From Candidatus Thalassarchaeum sp. (GTDB lineage Archaea; Thermoplasmatota; Poseidoniia; Poseidoniales; Thalassarchaeaceae), in contig JAKURL010000004.1 in NCBI GenBank assembly GCA_022449345.1, forward strand, positions 19,981-83,980: a stretch of DNA of 64,000 nt, in the 5' to 3' direction. Under the pieces are notes generated by a model, which was given only the letters and a program-made list of their open reading frames with translations, made no database searches and was not told the DNA's origin. Numbering within the stretch: the stretch's first letter is position 1; each line of letters starts with the position of its first letter. Made by a program: the position numbers and the translations under genes. Shown here piece after piece: positions 2,536 through 53,502 of the stretch.

Positions 2536-5500
2536 ATGTATAAAGGAATAGGATTCAGCCCCAAAATCATGGTTCTAGCCTTGCGCGTGAAAAAACTATC
2601 CTCGGTCTCAATGACATTTCTTGTTTTGACAATGTCCGCTATAGGATATTTCGCAATAGAGGAACAGAGTGCAGAGAGAGAAGAATTGCATGCAAAAGAT
2701 ATGCCGAGATTTGCGACTAGTCCGGGCCATTCAGTATTCGGTGAATATGTAGGAGCACATTGGTGTGGCCCTTGCATGGGAAGTGCCTCACCCTCCTTGG
2801 TTAATCTGAAGAATAGCAATTCTGAGGATTTCACCTACGTATCTTTCTTCGAGGGTGCTTCTACAGGATGGCCATCTGATGGGCCTGTTAACAGACAGAA
2901 CCACATTATGGCAAATTCGGGGGGATATCCAACATTTGCTTTCTCTGACGAAACCTCAGGTTCGTGCTACAAGGTTGGTTCCGCGGGAACAAATTACTAC
3001 GATGCCGACTTTAGCACTGGAGGTTGTATGCACGCCGATGCGAGTGATTTCAGCATGGAGATGGGCGTCTCCTTGGATTCCGCTGGCGATACAGTAACTA
3101 CCTCCTTAGAAATCACCTACCTAGGTGCTAACGACATTACCGTGTATGTTTACGGAGCGATTACTGAGAAATTAGGTGCAGAGGCATATGACGATGGAAG
3201 CAGACCTCACCACGTATGGCGAGAGTGGCTTCTATCGGATGAAAATGAGTTCACCGAGGTTACCTTGACTCCAAATCAGGCCGAGACCTTGACTTGGGAT
3301 AAACCACTAAACACAGTTCGTGCTGGTGGTGGAAACACACAATGGGAAAACTTCTGGCCAATATTCGCCCTGATGGATGGAGATTATTCAACATACAACG
3401 AGGTTTACGCCGCAATAGACCTAGACATGGGTCCATTGATCGACATAGGAATCGTTGATTTCGAAGCTCGTAATGCGAACGGAAACACTGGATTCGTTGC
3501 TGGAGACATTCTGGACCTAGAGGTCAATATTGCCAACAATGGAGCGGAAGAATACAATGACGGTGGTGGCATCGATATCTACCACCTTAGCGGTGGACAG
3601 GAAATACTCCTTGGTGGAATTTCAATCAACCAACTTTCAGTAGGTGGAACTCAGTCCTACTCTACAACGTTTGACACTAGCGATATCACTCTGGCTCCAT
3701 CAGGAACCTCTTCTTTTAGAGCGCGAATCTCAGGAATGGTCGGCGACCGTGTTCCAACCAATGATTACCAAGATGATCTTGCTCTACATGACATGCCTCC
3801 AGTTCCCAACCGCCCAGTTGCAGTTGCAGAATCTAGTGTAGAACGTGGAACTGCAATTCAGTTTGAGTCCACTGCTCTACCGAATGACCTTGTTGATGAC
3901 ATGTCAACCATGAGCGCAGAGTTGCAATACAGCATTCATGGGACTGGCTCTTGGGACGATACTTGGATTACCTCCATCGACATGGTAGGAAGTGGTGGAA
4001 ATTCCCGATACATTCACACAATTACACCACCGATGACATCTCAGTCAGGATTCTATGATATTCGAATTCAATGGACCGATGCAGGCGGACAAAAGTCAGA
4101 TTGGGAAGTCACTGAAAATGCCTTTGAGTTACGAAATGCTATGCCTCGAATTCTTCAAGCAGGGGATGAGGGTTACGGCGGAGTACCAACCGTCAAGGTT
4201 GACACCGTTGAAGCTGTGTCAATCGTTGGACTGGTAAGCGATGCAGAAACTCCACACTCTGAACTAATTATTGATTCAAATGCATACCAGTTCATTTCTT
4301 TTGACCCAGAGACTCTGGAAATCAGTGTTCAATTCGACGAGATTTTCTACGACAGTCATGGTAACTCGGTCTCACAGGGTATTTTCATTACCGTAGGGGA
4401 TGGAGAAGATTTCAGTTCTGGAACTTTGATGTTCAATGTAATTGAAAATGGTCAACCCCGCTGGAGCGGTGTACCAACTCAGGCTTTCGATGAGGGAGGT
4501 TCTGCCAGTCTAATTCTCACTGAATTCCTTTCGGACACAGATGACAATGGTAATCCCGTACCTGCGAACACATTGTCGCTGTCTATTGTCAGTATCAGTG
4601 ATGAGTCCTTGATGACAGCCGAAATTTATAGTCAAACCCTCAACGTCGCTGCAGTCGACGACGACAGTTATGGCATGGCTGAAATTGTAATTCGGGCATC
4701 CGACGGAGTCAAGGAATCCGACACTGTAATCACATTCCACATTAACAACATAAACGACGCACCTGTTATTGATTTGGGTGAATACATTAACCCAATTATT
4801 CAGACTGGTGACCGTCTAAACATCAATGTGATAGATTTGGTTACTGACGTCGATGATCCAGCAGATGAGATTTGGATTACAGTCACTACTTTCGTTCCTG
4901 GAGCTGTACAGTACAACCCGATCTCAGGTCTAGCCACAATGAGTTGGGATGAGGCTGGTGAAGAGATGGTGACAGTTACTGCAGAAGATCGCCATGGGGC
5001 TTCAAGCGCTGCAATTATGACCGTTAATGTGGTAGATGACCTTCCACTTCTATGGGTGGATGCAACAGGTTATGGAGACCTAGTAGTGAATATGGATACC
5101 ACTGAGTATGATTCAAATCCAAGCGTTACAATTGCCAACGCCGGTTCCCTTGAACTTTCGGAAATCGAGGTTCGATGGAGTGTTTGTAACAGCATTACAG
5201 GAATCTGTAACGACTTTGGAATCTCTCACAACTTTGGACCATTCATCGTTCTAGCCAACAGTGGAGAGGGCCTCAAAGTAGGGGATTACGTCACCCTCTC
5301 GGTCAATGCTTTGGACTCGAATGGATTTGATCGCTCAACTCAAGAACAGTTCAAGGCTTACGCGACTGAGCCTGTTGATGTAATATTGGAAGAATCTGAG
5401 GATGAAGGAAACCAAGGCAAGAGTTCCCTCTCAGTAATGACGACTGGACTTATGGCAATCGGAATCATGCTCTCACTTGCTCTCGTATTGGGGCTAGCAA

Positions 5501-14474: not shown

Positions 14475-14592
14475 GTCCGAAGTTTGATTATCCGATTCCC
14501 TTAGGACAATTCAGGGGAGCTTAGTGCTGAGAGGTCATCGAAAGGTGACGACCCTTTGACCTGATCTGGGTAATTCCAGCGGAGGGAGAGAA

Positions 14593-16086
14593 ATGGATAC
14601 GAACATCGCATATGGATTGATGATTGCAACGCTTGGTTTCTTTGGCTATGTCGGATACCAAGCGGCGACAGAAAAAGAACTCGACACCGACGAATATTTG
14701 TCGGCTAGGGGGTCACAAAGTTGGCTGAGAATTGGACTCAGCCTTTTTGCTTCAGGCATGGGCCTTTGGCTGCTGTTTGGCCCTTCAGAGGTAGGATATT
14801 ACGGAGGATTCTGGGAAGTACTTGGGTACGCTATTTCTGCTTCTACACCTTTCCTATTACTCGCATACTTGGGCCCCAAAATACGCTCAATTCTGCCTGA
14901 TGGCGTGACACTGGCAGATTATGTTCGTATACGATTGGGTAGACCTATGCAAATCTACGTGGGCCTCATTTCTATACTCTACATGTTCACTTTCCTATTC
15001 GCTGAATTTACTGCGATTGGTAGGGCAATGAACATACTTTCAGGTATGGAACCATTGTACCCAATCCTCCTAGTGGCCTTAGTGACTGCTGCATACACCA
15101 GTTATGGAGGCTTACCTGCTTCACTACGAACCGATCGCTGGCAAGGTTGGTTGGCCCTATGGTTACTGATTGCCTTACTTTTGATTGTCTTTGGAGGAGA
15201 TGTCAACACCATGATGGAACAAGCCAAGGCACACACGCCAATTCATGCAGAGGAATGGGGTTGGGAACACGGTAGTATCTCTGATTTGAACAAAGATTCT
15301 TTTGAAGCAGGTGTTGCATTAATTCTTGCTATTACGGCAGCCGAGATGTTCTCTCAAGGGAACTGGCAACGCGCCCATGCGGCTGAAAATGATGAGGCAT
15401 TAGTGAAGGGAGCTTGGTTCGCTGCAGCATTGGTATTCCCTTTGATGTTCATAATGGGGTTCCTCGGAACTGTTGTAGCAGGTCAAGGTGCTGTGGAAGA
15501 TCCTTCAGCGGCTTTCTTCTATTTGATTGAAGACGTGCATGTGTTCATCATAGCACTATTTGTTGTTCTAGGGGTCGCGTTGATTTGTTCAAGTGCCGAT
15601 ACATTGCAAAATGCCATCGTTGCTTCAATCAGTCGCGATTTAGCAGATGGGAAAATGGGTCTGAAAACAGCACGCATTGCCACCTTGGCTCTCCTCCCAT
15701 TGGCGATTTTGCTTTCTCTATGGGGTGTCGAAAATGGATACAGTATCTTTGCGATTTTTCTTTTTGCAGATTTGCTAGCGGCTGCAACCGTTCTACCCGT
15801 TTTACTTTCTCTATGGGGACGTGTTGACTCACGTGCTGCATTAGTGGGTGCTATTTCCGGACTCCTTTCAGTAATCGCCTATGGTGTATATGAGCCGGCA
15901 ACCAGTTATGATGGAATTCAACAATATGTCATGTACATCATCTATCCAACGATGGATCCAGTCAATGGGGGTGCGATATCTCCAGTAGATGGTGGCCTGA
16001 CGAATTTGTGGGTTTTCGTATCTGCACTATTGGGTTCTGGCCTTGTCACTGTGCTGGGTTCATACGCTTTGCATGATGAGCAATAA
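14593..16086 (+). CDS. Sodium:solute symporter family (SSF) transporter; possible proline/amino-acid uptake
   Basis: 497 aa with about 13 TM helices. The N-terminal region (YLSARGSQSWLRIGLSLFASGMG) is SSF-like. Confidence 0.7.
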   Translation: MDTNIAYGLMIATLGFFGYVGYQAATEKELDTDEYLSARGSQSWLRIGLSLFASGMGLWLLFGPSEVGYYGGFWEVLGYAISASTPFLLLAYLGPKIRSILPDGVTLADYVRIRLGRPMQIYVGLISILYMFTFLFAEFTAIGRAMNILSGMEPLYPILLVALVTAAYTSYGGLPASLRTDRWQGWLALWLLIALLLIVFGGDVNTMMEQAKAHTPIHAEEWGWEHGSISDLNKDSFEAGVALILAITAAEMFSQGNWQRAHAAENDEALVKGAWFAAALVFPLMFIMGFLGTVVAGQGAVEDPSAAFFYLIEDVHVFIIALFVVLGVALICSSADTLQNAIVASISRDLADGKMGLKTARIATLALLPLAILLSLWGVENGYSIFAIFLFADLLAAATVLPVLLSLWGRVDSRAALVGAISGLLSVIAYGVYEPATSYDGIQQYVMYIIYPTMDPVNGGAISPVDGGLTNLWVFVSALLGSGLVTVLGSYALHDEQ

Positions 16087-16088
16087 GC

Positions 16089-16232
16089 ATGGCAGAGCCG
16101 AACAACCATCCCACAGACAACACCTGTGAGATTCCAACCAAGGTGTTCATCTCTGGTCTCTGCCCTGAGTGTGGTGCTTAGGTGGAATTGGAATGGTCAA
16201 ACTGTCCTGAATGTTCCACACAGTTAGGTTGA
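16089..16232 (+). other. 47-codon four-Cys zinc-ribbon reading frame (CPEC...CPEC) interrupted by one in-frame TAG at 16179-16181
   Basis: ATG at 16089, then MAEPNNHPTDNTCEIPTKVFISGLCPECGA, a TAG, VELEWSNCPECSTQLG, and a TGA at 16230. The second CxxC knuckle is in the same frame immediately after the stop. Confidence 0.3.
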
Positions 16233-16304
16233 GTATATACTAACCAGTCTTCGGCTAAATTGACAATCGAGCCTTTCAAGGACTAATCTAACACTCGGAC
16301 AATC

Positions 16305-17093
16305 GTGCAGTCAGAGCGCATAACGACTCTGTGGGATAGATTACTCTCCCCTTGGCCGTATGTCTGGGTGCTTCCTTGGAAGTATAGAGAAGCACTCGGG
16401 GGTCATCTATTCCGTGTCCTAGTACTTGTATTCGGATTAGCAGTAGTCGCAGTTCCTTATTTTGGAACAAATATTTGGGCGGCTCAAAATGGAGTAACTG
16501 TTTGGGATCCTGAACTTGCGCTCGATCGTCAAATTCCAGTCATAGGTTGGATGATTGCTCCCTACATGGCGCTCTATCTGTTCTATCCTGCTACTCTGAT
16601 ATGCAATCCAATGGACGATAGACATCGGCTTGAACTGATTTCAGGCATTCAGATGTTATCGATAGCTACTGTCTTCTGTTCTGTGATATTTGTCACACTT
16701 CCCGCAGAAGTGGATATGCGGCATCAACTGGATATGGACGCACTTCGTGGATGGGAAGTTACCCTTTTCGAAACGATGCATTTCATGGACGAACCTTGGA
16801 ATGCTTGGCCCAGTTTGCACATCGCCCATTCGTATTTCCTTGCTAGGGCTATAACTCGATGGATACAAGCCTCATACTCAGACTCGACAGGACGCAAACT
16901 CTTCCTGACTATACTTTGGGTAGAGTTTGTCTTACTATCAATTAGCATACTCACTACCAAGCAACATTACGTTTGGGATCTATTCACGGGTCTGCTAGTA
17001 GGCTTTGCAGGTTGGTACGTAGCCGAGCCAGTTTTGAACAAAGTTAGAGACTTGCCCGAAGGTCAAGTGGAACCATATCCGCGCAATCAATAA
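16305..17093 (+). CDS. PAP2-superfamily membrane phosphatase-like protein
   Basis: 262 aa with about 6 TM segments. PAP2-like motifs are WPSLHIAHS (the PSGH-like motif) and TKQHYVWDL (the SRx5Hx3D-like motif). Confidence 0.45.
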   Translation: MQSERITTLWDRLLSPWPYVWVLPWKYREALGGHLFRVLVLVFGLAVVAVPYFGTNIWAAQNGVTVWDPELALDRQIPVIGWMIAPYMALYLFYPATLICNPMDDRHRLELISGIQMLSIATVFCSVIFVTLPAEVDMRHQLDMDALRGWEVTLFETMHFMDEPWNAWPSLHIAHSYFLARAITRWIQASYSDSTGRKLFLTILWVEFVLLSISILTTKQHYVWDLFTGLLVGFAGWYVAEPVLNKVRDLPEGQVEPYPRNQ

Positions 17094-20343: not shown

Positions 20344-21789
20344 CTAGAGCAGTGCGGCGACTCTTTCGGGCTGGGTCAGGTAGATCAGCAGCCCCAATCC
20401 GGCGAACATCATCATCCAAGCACCAGTTGCTTTGACAATTCCAGTCGACCTACGAAGGAAACCAATCATTGCTTGACGGCCCATTCCTACTAGGCCCGTA
20501 ACTAGAACCATCAACATTGTAACCGACAGTATAAGTCCTCCAAGTCCAGCAACAAATGCCCCTTCTCCAACAACAGTTAACCATGCGACGAATGGGAATA
20601 CTGCTGCTGCTGTACAGTCTACGGAAGCCGCTGAATATCCAATTCCCCAGAGGTACATATTTCTCCGAGGAGTGAAAATCTCGTCAGTCTCTCTTGTCTG
20701 ATATTTGTCCAAAATTCGCTGAACTCCTGCCAATAGGTGGCTGGTCCAGCCTAGTAGCATTAATCCACCCAAGATAAGGAGAAGCCAAGCGATTGCAATC
20801 GCAATTTTGTGAAGAACTCCTGATAGGCTGATTACTTCACTAAGTCCGAAGATAATTATTCCAACTATACCAAAAAAGGTTAGTTGACCTAGAGCAGCAA
20901 ATCCACCTACCTCAAATGAGTTAGGCATCTTTCCACTTAATTTTCCTGATTGGCGTAATTCGTCTTCCCTCATGCCCAGACTCAGATAATAGGTTATGTA
21001 GGAAGGCAATACTGGGAAAGCACAAGGCGAGAAGTAAACCAAAATGCCAAGGAATAAACCAATGATGAAAACGCCCGATACTGAACGATCGGTCTTTTTT
21101 ATTCCAATCCTTAAATCTTCAGCCTCGCCTAAATTTGCTGACTCTATAGCATCATCAAAGGCCTTCCATCCATCTAACGGAGTCCCTGTATTTTCCTTAG
21201 CAACTACAAAGCCTTGGTGATCGATAACTAAGGCTAGCGGGATTGCCTGAGCTGAGTAATACTCTACAATATCTCCTCGACCTCCATCATCCAGCAGAAT
21301 CACATCGTTTCCTCCATTGACTATTGGCCATGGCATGTGGCGGTCGGACTCAGGGTCGCCGAAAGTTGAGTTAATTTGGTCAAATGAATCTACTTGATAC
21401 CAAGTAGCAATTGATACCACAATTATTGGATAAGGGCCTTCGAGATTTTCCCATTCGGCTAGATTTTGGTCGATGTATCCCTGAACGTAATGGCAGTTCG
21501 CACAGTCTATTGACATGAAATCAAGAATTATCACATTACCGCGAAGGCTGCTCAATTGTATTGTGCCATCTTCTGCGGTGTAAAGCTCGTCAATACCATC
21601 GCGATTCATCGATGGGGCAATCCAATCGGGGGCCTCAGTAATCTCATCCGTAGTCCCATAAATCGATGAGGTAAGTCCGAATAAAGAGAGCGAAGAATAA
21701 CCGATTATACAGAACAGAACTACCCCTATTCCGAATGCTTTCCAGGTGTCTGATTCTTTCAAGACACCAAAGTCCAAACTGGTCTGCAT
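20344..21789 (-). CDS. Thiol:disulfide oxidoreductase: a TlpA/ResA-like thioredoxin domain (CANC) fused to a CcdA/DsbD transmembrane electron-transfer domain
   Basis: 481 aa. The thioredoxin-like segment has FMSIDCANCHY. The DsbD/CcdA-type TM domain has the FSPCAFPVLPSY cysteine motif. Confidence 0.7.
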   Translation of the reverse strand: MQTSLDFGVLKESDTWKAFGIGVVLFCIIGYSSLSLFGLTSSIYGTTDEITEAPDWIAPSMNRDGIDELYTAEDGTIQLSSLRGNVIILDFMSIDCANCHYVQGYIDQNLAEWENLEGPYPIIVVSIATWYQVDSFDQINSTFGDPESDRHMPWPIVNGGNDVILLDDGGRGDIVEYYSAQAIPLALVIDHQGFVVAKENTGTPLDGWKAFDDAIESANLGEAEDLRIGIKKTDRSVSGVFIIGLFLGILVYFSPCAFPVLPSYITYYLSLGMREDELRQSGKLSGKMPNSFEVGGFAALGQLTFFGIVGIIIFGLSEVISLSGVLHKIAIAIAWLLLILGGLMLLGWTSHLLAGVQRILDKYQTRETDEIFTPRRNMYLWGIGYSAASVDCTAAAVFPFVAWLTVVGEGAFVAGLGGLILSVTMLMVLVTGLVGMGRQAMIGFLRRSTGIVKATGAWMMMFAGLGLLIYLTQPERVAALL

Positions 21790-21828: not shown

Positions 21829-22542
21829 CTAAGATTTTCTTTCAATCGAATCTAGAAGTGAAGAAGCACCTATTCTGAATCGGGTTGCTCCATCTTCAAT
21901 TATTGTGGAATCTTGCTGATCAACTATACTAGTCAGCCTCTTGACATCTTCCATGTTTCTTATTCCACCGGATAATTTCACTCCGAGTTTTTCTCCGAAT
22001 GCTCGCTCATGCCGCATTAACTCATAAGCGAAAATTGCCGCTGTATCATCGCTGCATCCTCCTCTTTTGCCGGTGCAGGTTTTGATGAAGTCAGCACCTG
22101 AAGCAAGTGCCATGCGAGCCACCGCTCGCATTGGGCGTTCCTGCAATAGTGGAGTCTCTAGGATGACCTTCAGCACACACTCGCCGGAAGCCTCGCGCAT
22201 TGTGACTAGACGCTGTAAATCCTTATCATTCGGGAACTCGTTATCTTGCCTAGGTTCAAGCACGACATCTATCTCATCAACACCCGCTTCAACAGCCGAG
22301 GTGATGGCTTTTCGAATCTCATCAAGGTTTGAACTTCCAATTGGGAATCCGGCTGCGACGACTGCCAATTTAATTCTCTCATCTAATCTTTCCTTGACAA
22401 AACTCGCGTGCTCAGAAAAAACACAGATTGCTCCTACTTCCGAAGAGTTCGCCCGGGAAACAAACTCCTCCAATTCAGCCTCGCTAGCTTCGAAATCCAA
22501 CAGGGTGTAATCGAGGCATTCGATGACGGCTTTGGCATCCAA
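21829..22542 (-). CDS. deoC: Deoxyribose-phosphate aldolase
   Basis: 237 aa TIM barrel; the Schiff-base lysine context is GADFIKTCTGK. Confidence 0.75.
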   Translation of the reverse strand: MDAKAVIECLDYTLLDFEASEAELEEFVSRANSSEVGAICVFSEHASFVKERLDERIKLAVVAAGFPIGSSNLDEIRKAITSAVEAGVDEIDVVLEPRQDNEFPNDKDLQRLVTMREASGECVLKVILETPLLQERPMRAVARMALASGADFIKTCTGKRGGCSDDTAAIFAYELMRHERAFGEKLGVKLSGGIRNMEDVKRLTSIVDQQDSTIIEDGATRFRIGASSLLDSIERKS

Positions 22543-30280: not shown

Positions 30281-30454
30281 TCACTCGAGGACGTCTACGA
30301 TTGTGCTTCCAACAAGCTCGGCTTTACCACCTGCTGGGCGGGCCAAAGTGGAACCGCAAATTGAGCAGGAAATCTGGGTTGACGCCCTTTCGAAAATGAT
30401 AGCTTCGTGTCCGCAGTCACGGCAGTTTACTCGTAGAAATTTTGCATCTCCCAT
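30281..30454 (-). CDS. rps27e: Ribosomal protein S27e
   Basis: MGDAKFLRVNCRDCGHEAIIFERASTQISCSICGSTLARPAGGKAEL is the S27e C4 zinc finger. The listed ORF has an N-terminal extension that is probably not translated. Confidence 0.85.
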   Translation of the reverse strand: MGDAKFLRVNCRDCGHEAIIFERASTQISCSICGSTLARPAGGKAELVGSTIVDVLE

Positions 30455-30458
30455 GAAA

Positions 30459-30740
30459 TCACCTCTCAACGAGCTCGAACTTCCTTGCACGCTGCGAGGC
30501 CGGCTGGTGAGCCTTTCCGGTCTCCGAGCAACGGTAGAGTAGGTTGACGCGCTTGGTGGGCTTCTCACCGGATGGCTTTGGACGAGGGAAACCTCGGTAT
30601 CCAGATGTAACCTTACGGAATCTTCGCTGACCCCACTTTAGTTCAGAAGCGCGTCGCTTCTTGACACGCTCGACGGTGTGCTCAGTGTGCTTACCAGCCG
30701 ATGGGCTGTAGCGCATTATCTTACGTGGCATCTTTACCAT
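30459..30740 (-). CDS. rpl44e: Ribosomal protein L44e
   Basis: MVKMPRKIMRYSPSAGKHTEHTVERVKK...YRCSETGKAHQ matches L44e. Confidence 0.85.
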   Translation of the reverse strand: MVKMPRKIMRYSPSAGKHTEHTVERVKKRRASELKWGQRRFRKVTSGYRGFPRPKPSGEKPTKRVNLLYRCSETGKAHQPASQRARKFELVER

Positions 30741-52412: not shown

Positions 52413-53087
52413 TCATTCTGGAAATGGCTCACCGAATAGGGGCTGCCAAATTTTCCTCAGGTCTCTTCCTTCGACAATTGGAACTCCTGCTTTGACAAAA
52501 TCCTCAGCCCCTCTATTTGAGGCTGGATTGAAACCAATGAATCGTGACCCTGGAATCATCATCGAAAGGTCGGGGCCAGAGTCGCCAACGGAGACGATGT
52601 AGGCGGGGTCAATCGAGTTAATTTTCGCCAATTTTTCGACCATTGCACCCTTGTTATGAGAGTCAACCATTGTTTGCTTTGAACCCACCAACCAGCCTCC
52701 CTCATTCCATTCGAATCCATTCGCTGCCCAATCATCTACTTTCAGCATATTTGCAATTGAGCCGACCATTAGGTCGACGCCTGAAGATACGATTGCAACT
52801 AAAATGCCACGTTTTTGTAACACCTCGACGACTTCTCTGGCACCTGTCATTAGTTTGATTCCTGAATAACATCTCATGATATCATCACGATGAATTTCCG
52901 GTTGTACTTCTCGCCACATTCGGATATCATCCGAGACAAATTCAGCATCTGTAATTTCCTTGCGAAGGAACTTGGCAAGCATTTCGGAGTTCTCAGTTCC
53001 AAAATGGTCGTGTATATTCTGCCACGAAGAGTCGTTGTCGGCTAGTACCCCATCGCAATCGAAGGCCACCGCTTTGACGTCGTGCAT
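52413..53087 (-). CDS. HAD-superfamily phosphatase (phosphoserine-phosphatase-like)
   Basis: HAD motif I is AFDCDGVLAD; motif III/IV is SVGDSGPD. Confidence 0.65.
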   Translation of the reverse strand: MHDVKAVAFDCDGVLADNDSSWQNIHDHFGTENSEMLAKFLRKEITDAEFVSDDIRMWREVQPEIHRDDIMRCYSGIKLMTGAREVVEVLQKRGILVAIVSSGVDLMVGSIANMLKVDDWAANGFEWNEGGWLVGSKQTMVDSHNKGAMVEKLAKINSIDPAYIVSVGDSGPDLSMMIPGSRFIGFNPASNRGAEDFVKAGVPIVEGRDLRKIWQPLFGEPFPE

Positions 53088-53170
53088 GTTTGTGGTTGGG
53101 CAAAGTTAGGTGTTTAGATTCTGCGCGGCGATGGGTTGGTTATATTGCGACCTTATCTTTGGATGAGGAT

Positions 53171-53428
53171 ATGGGAGAAGGCGACTTAGCCATAAAGGTC
53201 AAAATGCTATTTTTTGGCCCGCTTGCAGAAGCGATGGGCGAGCGGGAAATTGAGGTCGCAATGCTTCAAGGATCCACAGCAAGGCAACTTATCGACCGGT
53301 TTCGGCTAACTCCAATGTTAGACTCGGGCTTGAGAGTCGCAATCGATGGTGTGGTCGGGGCAAATTTGGATGCGAGCCTCTCTGATGCTTCTGAAATCGT
53401 ATTTCTGCCGCCGGTTTCTGGTGGATGA
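53171..53428 (+). CDS. MoaD/ThiS-like beta-grasp small protein ending in Gly-Gly (SAMP-like)
   Basis: MGEGDLAIKVKMLFFGPLAEAMG...EIVFLPPVSGG is the MoaD pattern with the C-terminal GG. The start is chosen at the internal Met, which gives about 85 aa. Confidence 0.55.
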   Translation: MGEGDLAIKVKMLFFGPLAEAMGEREIEVAMLQGSTARQLIDRFRLTPMLDSGLRVAIDGVVGANLDASLSDASEIVFLPPVSGG

Positions 53429-53502
53429 GGCAAAACCATCTCTATTGTGCCTACTTTGCCGAAGCCTTTGATAGAGGATAGCCGCACCTAAAGACGAGCA
53501 AC

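Follow-up and report, generated by a model that had tools for sequence, protein, structure and literature searches.

A conserved small zinc-ribbon gene of Marine Group II archaea is interrupted in Candidatus Thalassarchaeum sp. by a single in-frame amber codon, which is probably a nonsense mutation fixed in the species that has made the gene an early pseudogene or a null/truncated allele. An Asp/Glu codon just after the first cysteine knuckle would have changed to TAG, translation would stop at residue 30, short of the second CxxC knuckle, so that no 4-Cys zinc site could form. Termination at the TAG would be efficient and the truncated peptide presumably non-functional. The features of the locus, numbered along the window (the whole stretch of 64,000 nucleotides that was analyzed), are as follows.

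14503-14604, + strand: TPP riboswitch aptamer at the head of the operon, extending over the symporter start codon (Rfam RF00059; score 57.8 bits, gathering threshold 54.3).
14593-16086, + strand: gene for an SSF-family sodium:solute symporter of 497 aa, ThiV-like by context (PF00474, 1.9e-22).
16084-16091, + strand: stop-start junction TAAGCATG between the symporter gene and the zinc-ribbon ORF, with equivalent junctions in relatives.
16089-16178, + strand: N-terminal 30 codons of the zinc-ribbon ORF, encoding the conserved N-terminal region, predicted to be disordered, and the first knuckle, CPEC.
16179-16181, + strand: in-frame TAG, an Asp/Glu codon in relatives and TAG in 25 of 25 contigs of the species.
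16182-16232, + strand: C-terminal 16 codons of the ORF, encoding the conserved Trp, the second CPEC and the C-terminal LG, then TGA.
16223, + strand: population SNP, G to T (CAG Gln to CAT His), non-synonymous, located after the TAG and fixed in the second sub-lineage.
16305-17093, + strand: gene for a PAP2-family membrane phosphatase.

The segment 16089-16232 of the + strand translates as MAEPNNHPTDNTCEIPTKVFISGLCPECGA-TAG-VELEWSNCPECSTQLG-TGA, with the in-frame TAG at 16179-16181 and the terminal TGA at 16230-16232. One CPEC knuckle lies on each side of the TAG in the same frame (spacing CPEC-x10-CPEC), as had been described from the sequence alone and is confirmed by translation. Read through, the 141-nt gene would encode a peptide of 47 aa, in which the residues across the TAG would be ...VFISGLCPECGA-X-VELEWSNCPECSTQLG. 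The sequence-only reading placed the ATG 3 nt after the symporter stop, which is essentially the right position, although the actual gap between the TAA at 16084-16086 and the ATG at 16089 is 2 nt. Besides the TAG, the ORF contains no frameshift and keeps all four knuckle cysteines, the Trp, the C-terminal LG and the start junction. A second copy of the gene was not found within the 64-kb window.

Judged by alignment, this frame is a real gene, and its match to homologues goes far beyond chance. Related Marine Group II archaea (Ca. Thalassarchaeum/MGIIb) carry an intact zinc-ribbon ORF of 47-66 aa at the orthologous position. A tblastn search with the read-through peptide recovered full-length intact ORFs directly after the symporter gene in 10 species-representative genomes; three further genomes gave shorter matches, which belong to a longer variant. 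Another 26 intact loci came from a metagenome scan and three more (L144-L146) from look-ups anchored on PAP2. More than 35 intact copies lie between symporter and PAP2 genes. The window frame aligns end to end, with both its halves, to intact orthologous ORFs, the nearest being that of locus L056 (31 of 45 residues identical). Against this copy, 35, 38 and 14 of 45 codons are identical at positions 1, 2 and 3, respectively, and 11, 12 and 4 of 16 in the part after the TAG; this pattern indicates that the window copy has long evolved as coding sequence. The proposal of a single zinc-ribbon gene split by the TAG is thus borne out: relatives do have a conserved ORF at this position, and homologues co-conserve both halves as one protein.

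The family was reached through synteny and then tblastn, and later by profile. A word-index protein search with the 47-aa read-through peptide returned 0 matches, and the family profile found 13 protein clusters (E down to 5e-25) among 5.8 billion proteins, all labelled "hypothetical protein" bar one that is clearly mis-named. The members share the core motif ...FIPGLCPxCGA[DE]VxI[ED]WKxCxxCxxxLG, within the consensus MxxxxEPTNLPADNTCQIPVKVFIPGLCPxCGADVKIEWKKCxSCSFxLG. The median dN/dS among intact pairs is 0.14 (0.13 before and 0.15 after the TAG position), a value indicating that the intact copies are under purifying selection. The earlier question of whether orthologous loci have a sense codon in place of the TAG is answered by their alignment: all 24 other unique type-1 DNA versions encode Asp or Glu there (GAT in 16, GAG in five, GAA in three). 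In longer or more distant variants the residue is Asp or Glu, with Ser in a single case, and the stop is exclusive to this species among the homologues examined. The TAG of the window is one transversion away from GAG.

The longer variant, of 56-66 aa (L059:5453-5650, L065:5429-5626, L085:5453-5653 and L126:2480-2653), replaces the conserved Trp by Met (VKIEMKNCPEC) and carries a C-terminal YK extension. Three of its four copies (L059, L065 and L085) include an extra N-terminal segment that contains Cys, and L126 looks chimeric between both family types.

Gene callers have largely passed over the family. The gap between symporter and PAP2 is without a called gene in every contig of the window's species, and the identical symporter and PAP2 proteins at NCBI carry consecutive accessions (MCH2441173 and MCH2441174) with no annotation between them. 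At L144:2135-2419 (- strand) the caller reports a 94-aa antisense ORF, probably spurious, and misses the real 47-aa zinc-ribbon ORF. Elsewhere in the window, intact small ORFs also occupy gaps between large ORFs, at 30281-30715 (-) and 53078-53491 (+). One of these is presumably a 4-Cys ribbon (...CRDCGHEAIIFERASTQISCSICGS...) resembling ribosomal protein S27e; another, which ends in GG, is taken to be ubiquitin-like.

All 11 members scanned match DZR (PF12773) and Zn_ribbon_3 (PF13248) over the two-knuckle core, with a best E of 4e-6; the window copy reaches a best Pfam score of 24.2 bits, below the gathering cut-off of 27.3. In the AlphaFold model of an intact homologue (P0120) the N-terminal 20 residues are disordered (pLDDT 46), and the ordered C-terminal 27 residues hold both knuckles (pLDDT 76-78). 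This core superposes on the C-terminal ribbon of RadD, on NZF/RanBP2 fingers and on ribosomal L40e, at 0.7-1.1 Å over 22-24 residues. The best Foldseek matches are generic zinc ribbons, all with E >0.3 and thus without significance. Pfam matches of the family are limited to such generic zinc ribbons, DZR, Zn_ribbon_3 and Zn_Ribbon_1 (PF13240) being the closest; the N-terminal block of the family, EPxNLPADNTCxIPVKVFIPG, has no counterpart in these domains.

The closest archaeal parallels are the C(P)XCG micro-proteins, such as HVO_0758 and HVO_2753 of Haloferax volcanii and Brz of Halobacterium, whose gene lies upstream of bop and represents a micro-protein gene adjoining its target (PMC11241148, PMC10716476, PMC6562870, PMC2253796). 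Like these proteins, the members of the family are shorter than 70 aa, have two Cys knuckles of which the first is the canonical CPxCG, and are often unannotated. However, the second knuckle of the family is a CxxC without Gly, the phylum differs (Poseidoniales), the genomic context is fixed behind a riboswitch-controlled transporter, and there is no detectable specific sequence relationship.

Marine Group II archaea (Ca. Poseidoniales) are the source of the orthologous loci, most of which belong to Thalassarchaeaceae/MGIIb. A TPP riboswitch precedes the symporter gene in 10 of the 13 related Poseidoniales loci tested, PAP2 follows the zinc-ribbon ORF in every locus whose downstream region was examined, and a convergent PHO4/PhoU phosphate transporter gene lies beyond PAP2. 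In most lineages the zinc-ribbon gene is the end of the TPP-riboswitch operon. Its start takes one of three forms, overlapping the symporter stop (GTGA or ATGA), following it by 0-5 nt, or lying in the symporter frame, and these junctions suggest that the gene is translationally coupled to the ThiV-like transporter. The third form occurs in L064, L074, L050, L059, L065, L085, L144 and L146 (at ~5450-5470 in the GTDB loci), in which one stop codon, one codon and the ATG make up the separation (e.g., TCC TGA TTG ATG); a single readthrough event there would fuse the ribbon to the C-terminus of the transporter.

In SAR11, ThiV is an SSF symporter with a TPP riboswitch and functions as an HMP importer (PMC11452348). 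The archaeal gene shares with it the SSF family, the position right after a TPP riboswitch and the occurrence in an abundant lineage of marine plankton. It differs in being archaeal, in having a predicted substrate and in its coupling to a downstream zinc-ribbon ORF, none having been reported for ThiV. By analogy, the combination of riboswitch and symporter suggests ThiV-like uptake of a thiamine precursor in Marine Group II. The zinc-ribbon family itself most likely provides a small zinc-dependent accessory or regulatory protein for the transporter or for the neighboring PAP2/phosphate genes, an assignment that again rests on analogy.

In two loci (L075:7401-8093 and L040:7355-7522) the zinc-ribbon ORF lies just upstream of PAP2 and 2 kb from the symporter gene, from which it is parted by an inserted Band-7/SPFH cassette; in L075 its start codon adjoins the stop of a 189-aa ORF of unassigned function. 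Survival of the small gene at this distance suggests that it may be independent of the symporter. At 16275-16283 of the window lies a conserved non-coding motif, TTCAAGG(A/G)(C/G), which is located ~21-25 nt upstream of the PAP2 start codon, and aligns in L056, L058, L064, L074, L050, L101, L144, L146, L059 and L085. It is kept in lineages with saturated synonymous sites and possibly serves as the promoter or a regulatory sequence of a PAP2 mRNA that lacks a leader.

The TAG is present in 25 of 25 distinct contigs, obtained from 25 metagenome assemblies made with different assemblers. These contigs, to which the 31 fetched loci reduce, share 98.8-99.98% identity with the window and fall into two sub-lineages, the second being marked by the SNP at 16223, 42 nt downstream of the TAG. 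This non-synonymous SNP is the only variation of the ORF within the species, too little diversity for a selection test after the TAG. In the species as sampled, the TAG allele has reached fixation.

Relatives with an ORF identity between 66% and 100% are absent from the collections, as covered by PAP2 homologues, cluster members and the metagenome scan: identity falls from 99% to 81% for PAP2 and from 100% to 66% for the zinc-ribbon ORF. No window-like allele with a sense Asp/Glu codon occurs in the scanned metagenome collection; the scan patterns demanded Asp/Glu at the TAG position, so that TAG alleles were not retrievable in this way. Owing to this gap in the relatives, the age of the TAG is bracketed rather than dated: it predates the diversity within the species and arose after the L056-like lineage had split off. 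The word "recent" suits the nonsense mutation only when set against the family's divergence; in the sampled population the allele has already gone to fixation.

Of all members of the family, the window copy has diverged furthest. It departs from the others at 3 of 19 columns that are otherwise invariant (every other lineage departs at 0-1), through Ala to Thr, Pro to Ser in FIPGLCP, and Lys to Ser after the Trp (WK). The share of amino-acid differences that falls after the TAG is 0.46 for the window and 0.47 for intact pairs, and dS is saturated between the window copy and every homologue. Since the post-TAG segment is no more diverged than expected, either a nonsense mutation that is young on the time-scale of the family or a tail that is still under selection would fit.

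Loss of the gene is apparently not confined to this species. In many related loci the symporter gene leads straight to PAP2, with no zinc-ribbon ORF and no room for one, and comparison of the loci indicates that the gene is dispensable elsewhere, patchily distributed and repeatedly lost. Frameshifted copies (L127:563-712, ...ADVKSNGRIVPVVVSN; P0129; P0131) are found in the L058/L111-like clade and appear to be independent decay events. Zinc ribbons located ~1.7 kb downstream of the symporter gene (L021, L025 and others) were considered as the small gene and rejected, as they form the C-terminal domain of a 401-aa protein; the L075 counterpart of this protein matches Band-7/SPFH.

The history of the transporter offers a plausible reason for the loss of constraint. 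The genes that flank the pair are closest to those of genomes carrying the small zinc-ribbon gene (MGIIb-O1-like), an affinity that the zinc-ribbon ORF shares: ALDH is 87-97% identical to L074 at the nucleotide level, PHO4 is 95-96% identical in amino acids to L033, L056, L074 and L078, and PAP2 is 80% identical in amino acids to L056. The segment 14520-16020, comprising the riboswitch and the body of the symporter gene, shows 71-85% nucleotide identity to L022 vs. 34-74% to L074. Tree, C-terminal alignment and sliding nucleotide identity place the symporter body with the L021-L025 clade (89-91% amino-acid identity), none of whose other members has a small gene downstream. The last ~7 codons of the symporter gene (YALHDEQ and the stop) are of the O1 type that is found beside zinc-ribbon genes, the C-terminus reading GSYALHDEQ in the window vs. 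GSYALPDEQ in L033, each followed by the stop. This mosaic suggests that the symporter allele was replaced by recombination, with a 3' junction near 16020-16065. Riboswitch and symporter body would thus have been swapped for the allele of a clade that lacks a downstream zinc-ribbon gene, and the swap may have relaxed selection on the small gene, an argument that is circumstantial. Possibly the family is co-adapted to one clade of ThiV-like transporters as their partner and drops out upon exchange of the transporter.

Among the options that had been listed for the TAG, the nonsense mutation is the best supported. The alternative that fares next best holds that readthrough of the stop is functional or leaky: a near-cognate tRNA would read the UAG, giving a reduced amount of full-length protein, and the stop would act as a dosage attenuator of the TPP-regulated operon. 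This is unlikely, even though the ORF is otherwise intact with a coding signature that persists after the TAG, the allele is fixed across the 25 contigs of two sub-lineages, and the stop-start coupling to the symporter gene is preserved. Such intactness is expected of any young nonsense allele in a gene of 141 nt, and the substitutions at invariant columns on both sides of the TAG suggest relaxed constraint over the whole ORF. The stop, moreover, is confined to this species, every other homologue examined having a sense codon. Folding of the RNA from the TAG on (16170-16300, 131 nt) gives -28.5 kcal/mol, shuffled sequences averaging -28.7 (z = 0.07), and hence no stimulatory structure. Stop-codon readthrough in archaea is established only for Sec and Pyl (PMC8211752). 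More doubtful still is a physiologically meaningful rate of UAG readthrough that needs neither Sec nor Pyl machinery and yields an attenuated supply of the full zinc-ribbon protein; if true, it would be natural stop-codon readthrough of a kind, outside Sec and Pyl, that has no described precedent among archaea.

A split or truncated functional form is very improbable. The N-terminal 30-aa peptide, which contains the most conserved block of the family (NxPxxNxC...KVFIxGLCPxCGA), would have to function alone, or re-initiation at the GTG at 16182, directly after the TAG, would have to supply a 16-aa half that pairs with it in zinc binding. However, what this GTG encodes is just the family's invariant Val, for which relatives use GTA, GTT, GTG or GTC, and no homologue is split. 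Because only the two-knuckle core formed by the C-terminal 27 residues is ordered in the model, a one-knuckle peptide would be left without a fold.

Amber recoding, by which UAG would encode pyrrolysine or another amino acid genome-wide or at this site, has hardly any probability left. The phylum Thermoplasmatota does include Pyl users, the Methanomassiliicoccales, but Poseidoniales are absent from the survey of archaeal Pyl systems (PMC9630628). As in the pyrrolysine recoding of methanogenic archaea, an in-frame UAG sits inside an otherwise intact archaeal ORF; unlike in methanogens, the homologous position holds an ordinary Asp/Glu, TAG is a common stop, and the host lineage is an aerobic heterotroph that is not known to use Pyl. 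The 46 large ORFs of the window end in TGA (22), TAA (16) or TAG (8, 17%), the neighboring ALDH and PHO4 genes both ending in TAG, and the in-frame extensions past the TAGs of large ORFs are short and unconserved. No other recognizable TAG-split gene was found in the window, its four tRNAs (Ser-CGA, Val-TAC, Glu-TTC and Thr-TGT) include no tRNA(CUA), and the 28 window ORFs scanned contain no pyl-like domain. The earlier judgment that pyrrolysine is unlikely therefore stands, and amber recoding and programmed readthrough, which it had listed as options, find no positive support at a TAG that is an ordinary stop, is restricted to the species and has no structure downstream. A DeoC-family ORF at 21829-22542 (-) also ends in a TAG, in frame with the next ORF (20344-21789) 13 codons away; this pair was rejected as a TAG-linked gene and is probably a coincidence, the DeoC domain being complete and the 481-aa neighbor having no Pfam match. 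A sequencing or assembly error in one record, the remaining option, is excluded and the TAG is real, given the identical codon in 25 contigs from 25 assemblies, including the sub-lineage with its own SNP.

With the fixed nonsense allele as the preferred reading, the gene should not be counted as evidence for amber readthrough in Marine Group II archaea. The analysis brought out a conserved family of small zinc-ribbon proteins, largely overlooked by gene callers and tied by stop-start coupling to a TPP-riboswitch-controlled symporter, probably for a thiamine precursor, in a group that ranks among the most abundant archaea of the ocean. The locus also represents a clear example of the replacement of a transporter allele within otherwise conserved surroundings, which may explain the decay of the small gene. 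If the family proves to be an accessory or regulator of the transporter, it would have a bearing on the vitamin B1 economy of the surface ocean.
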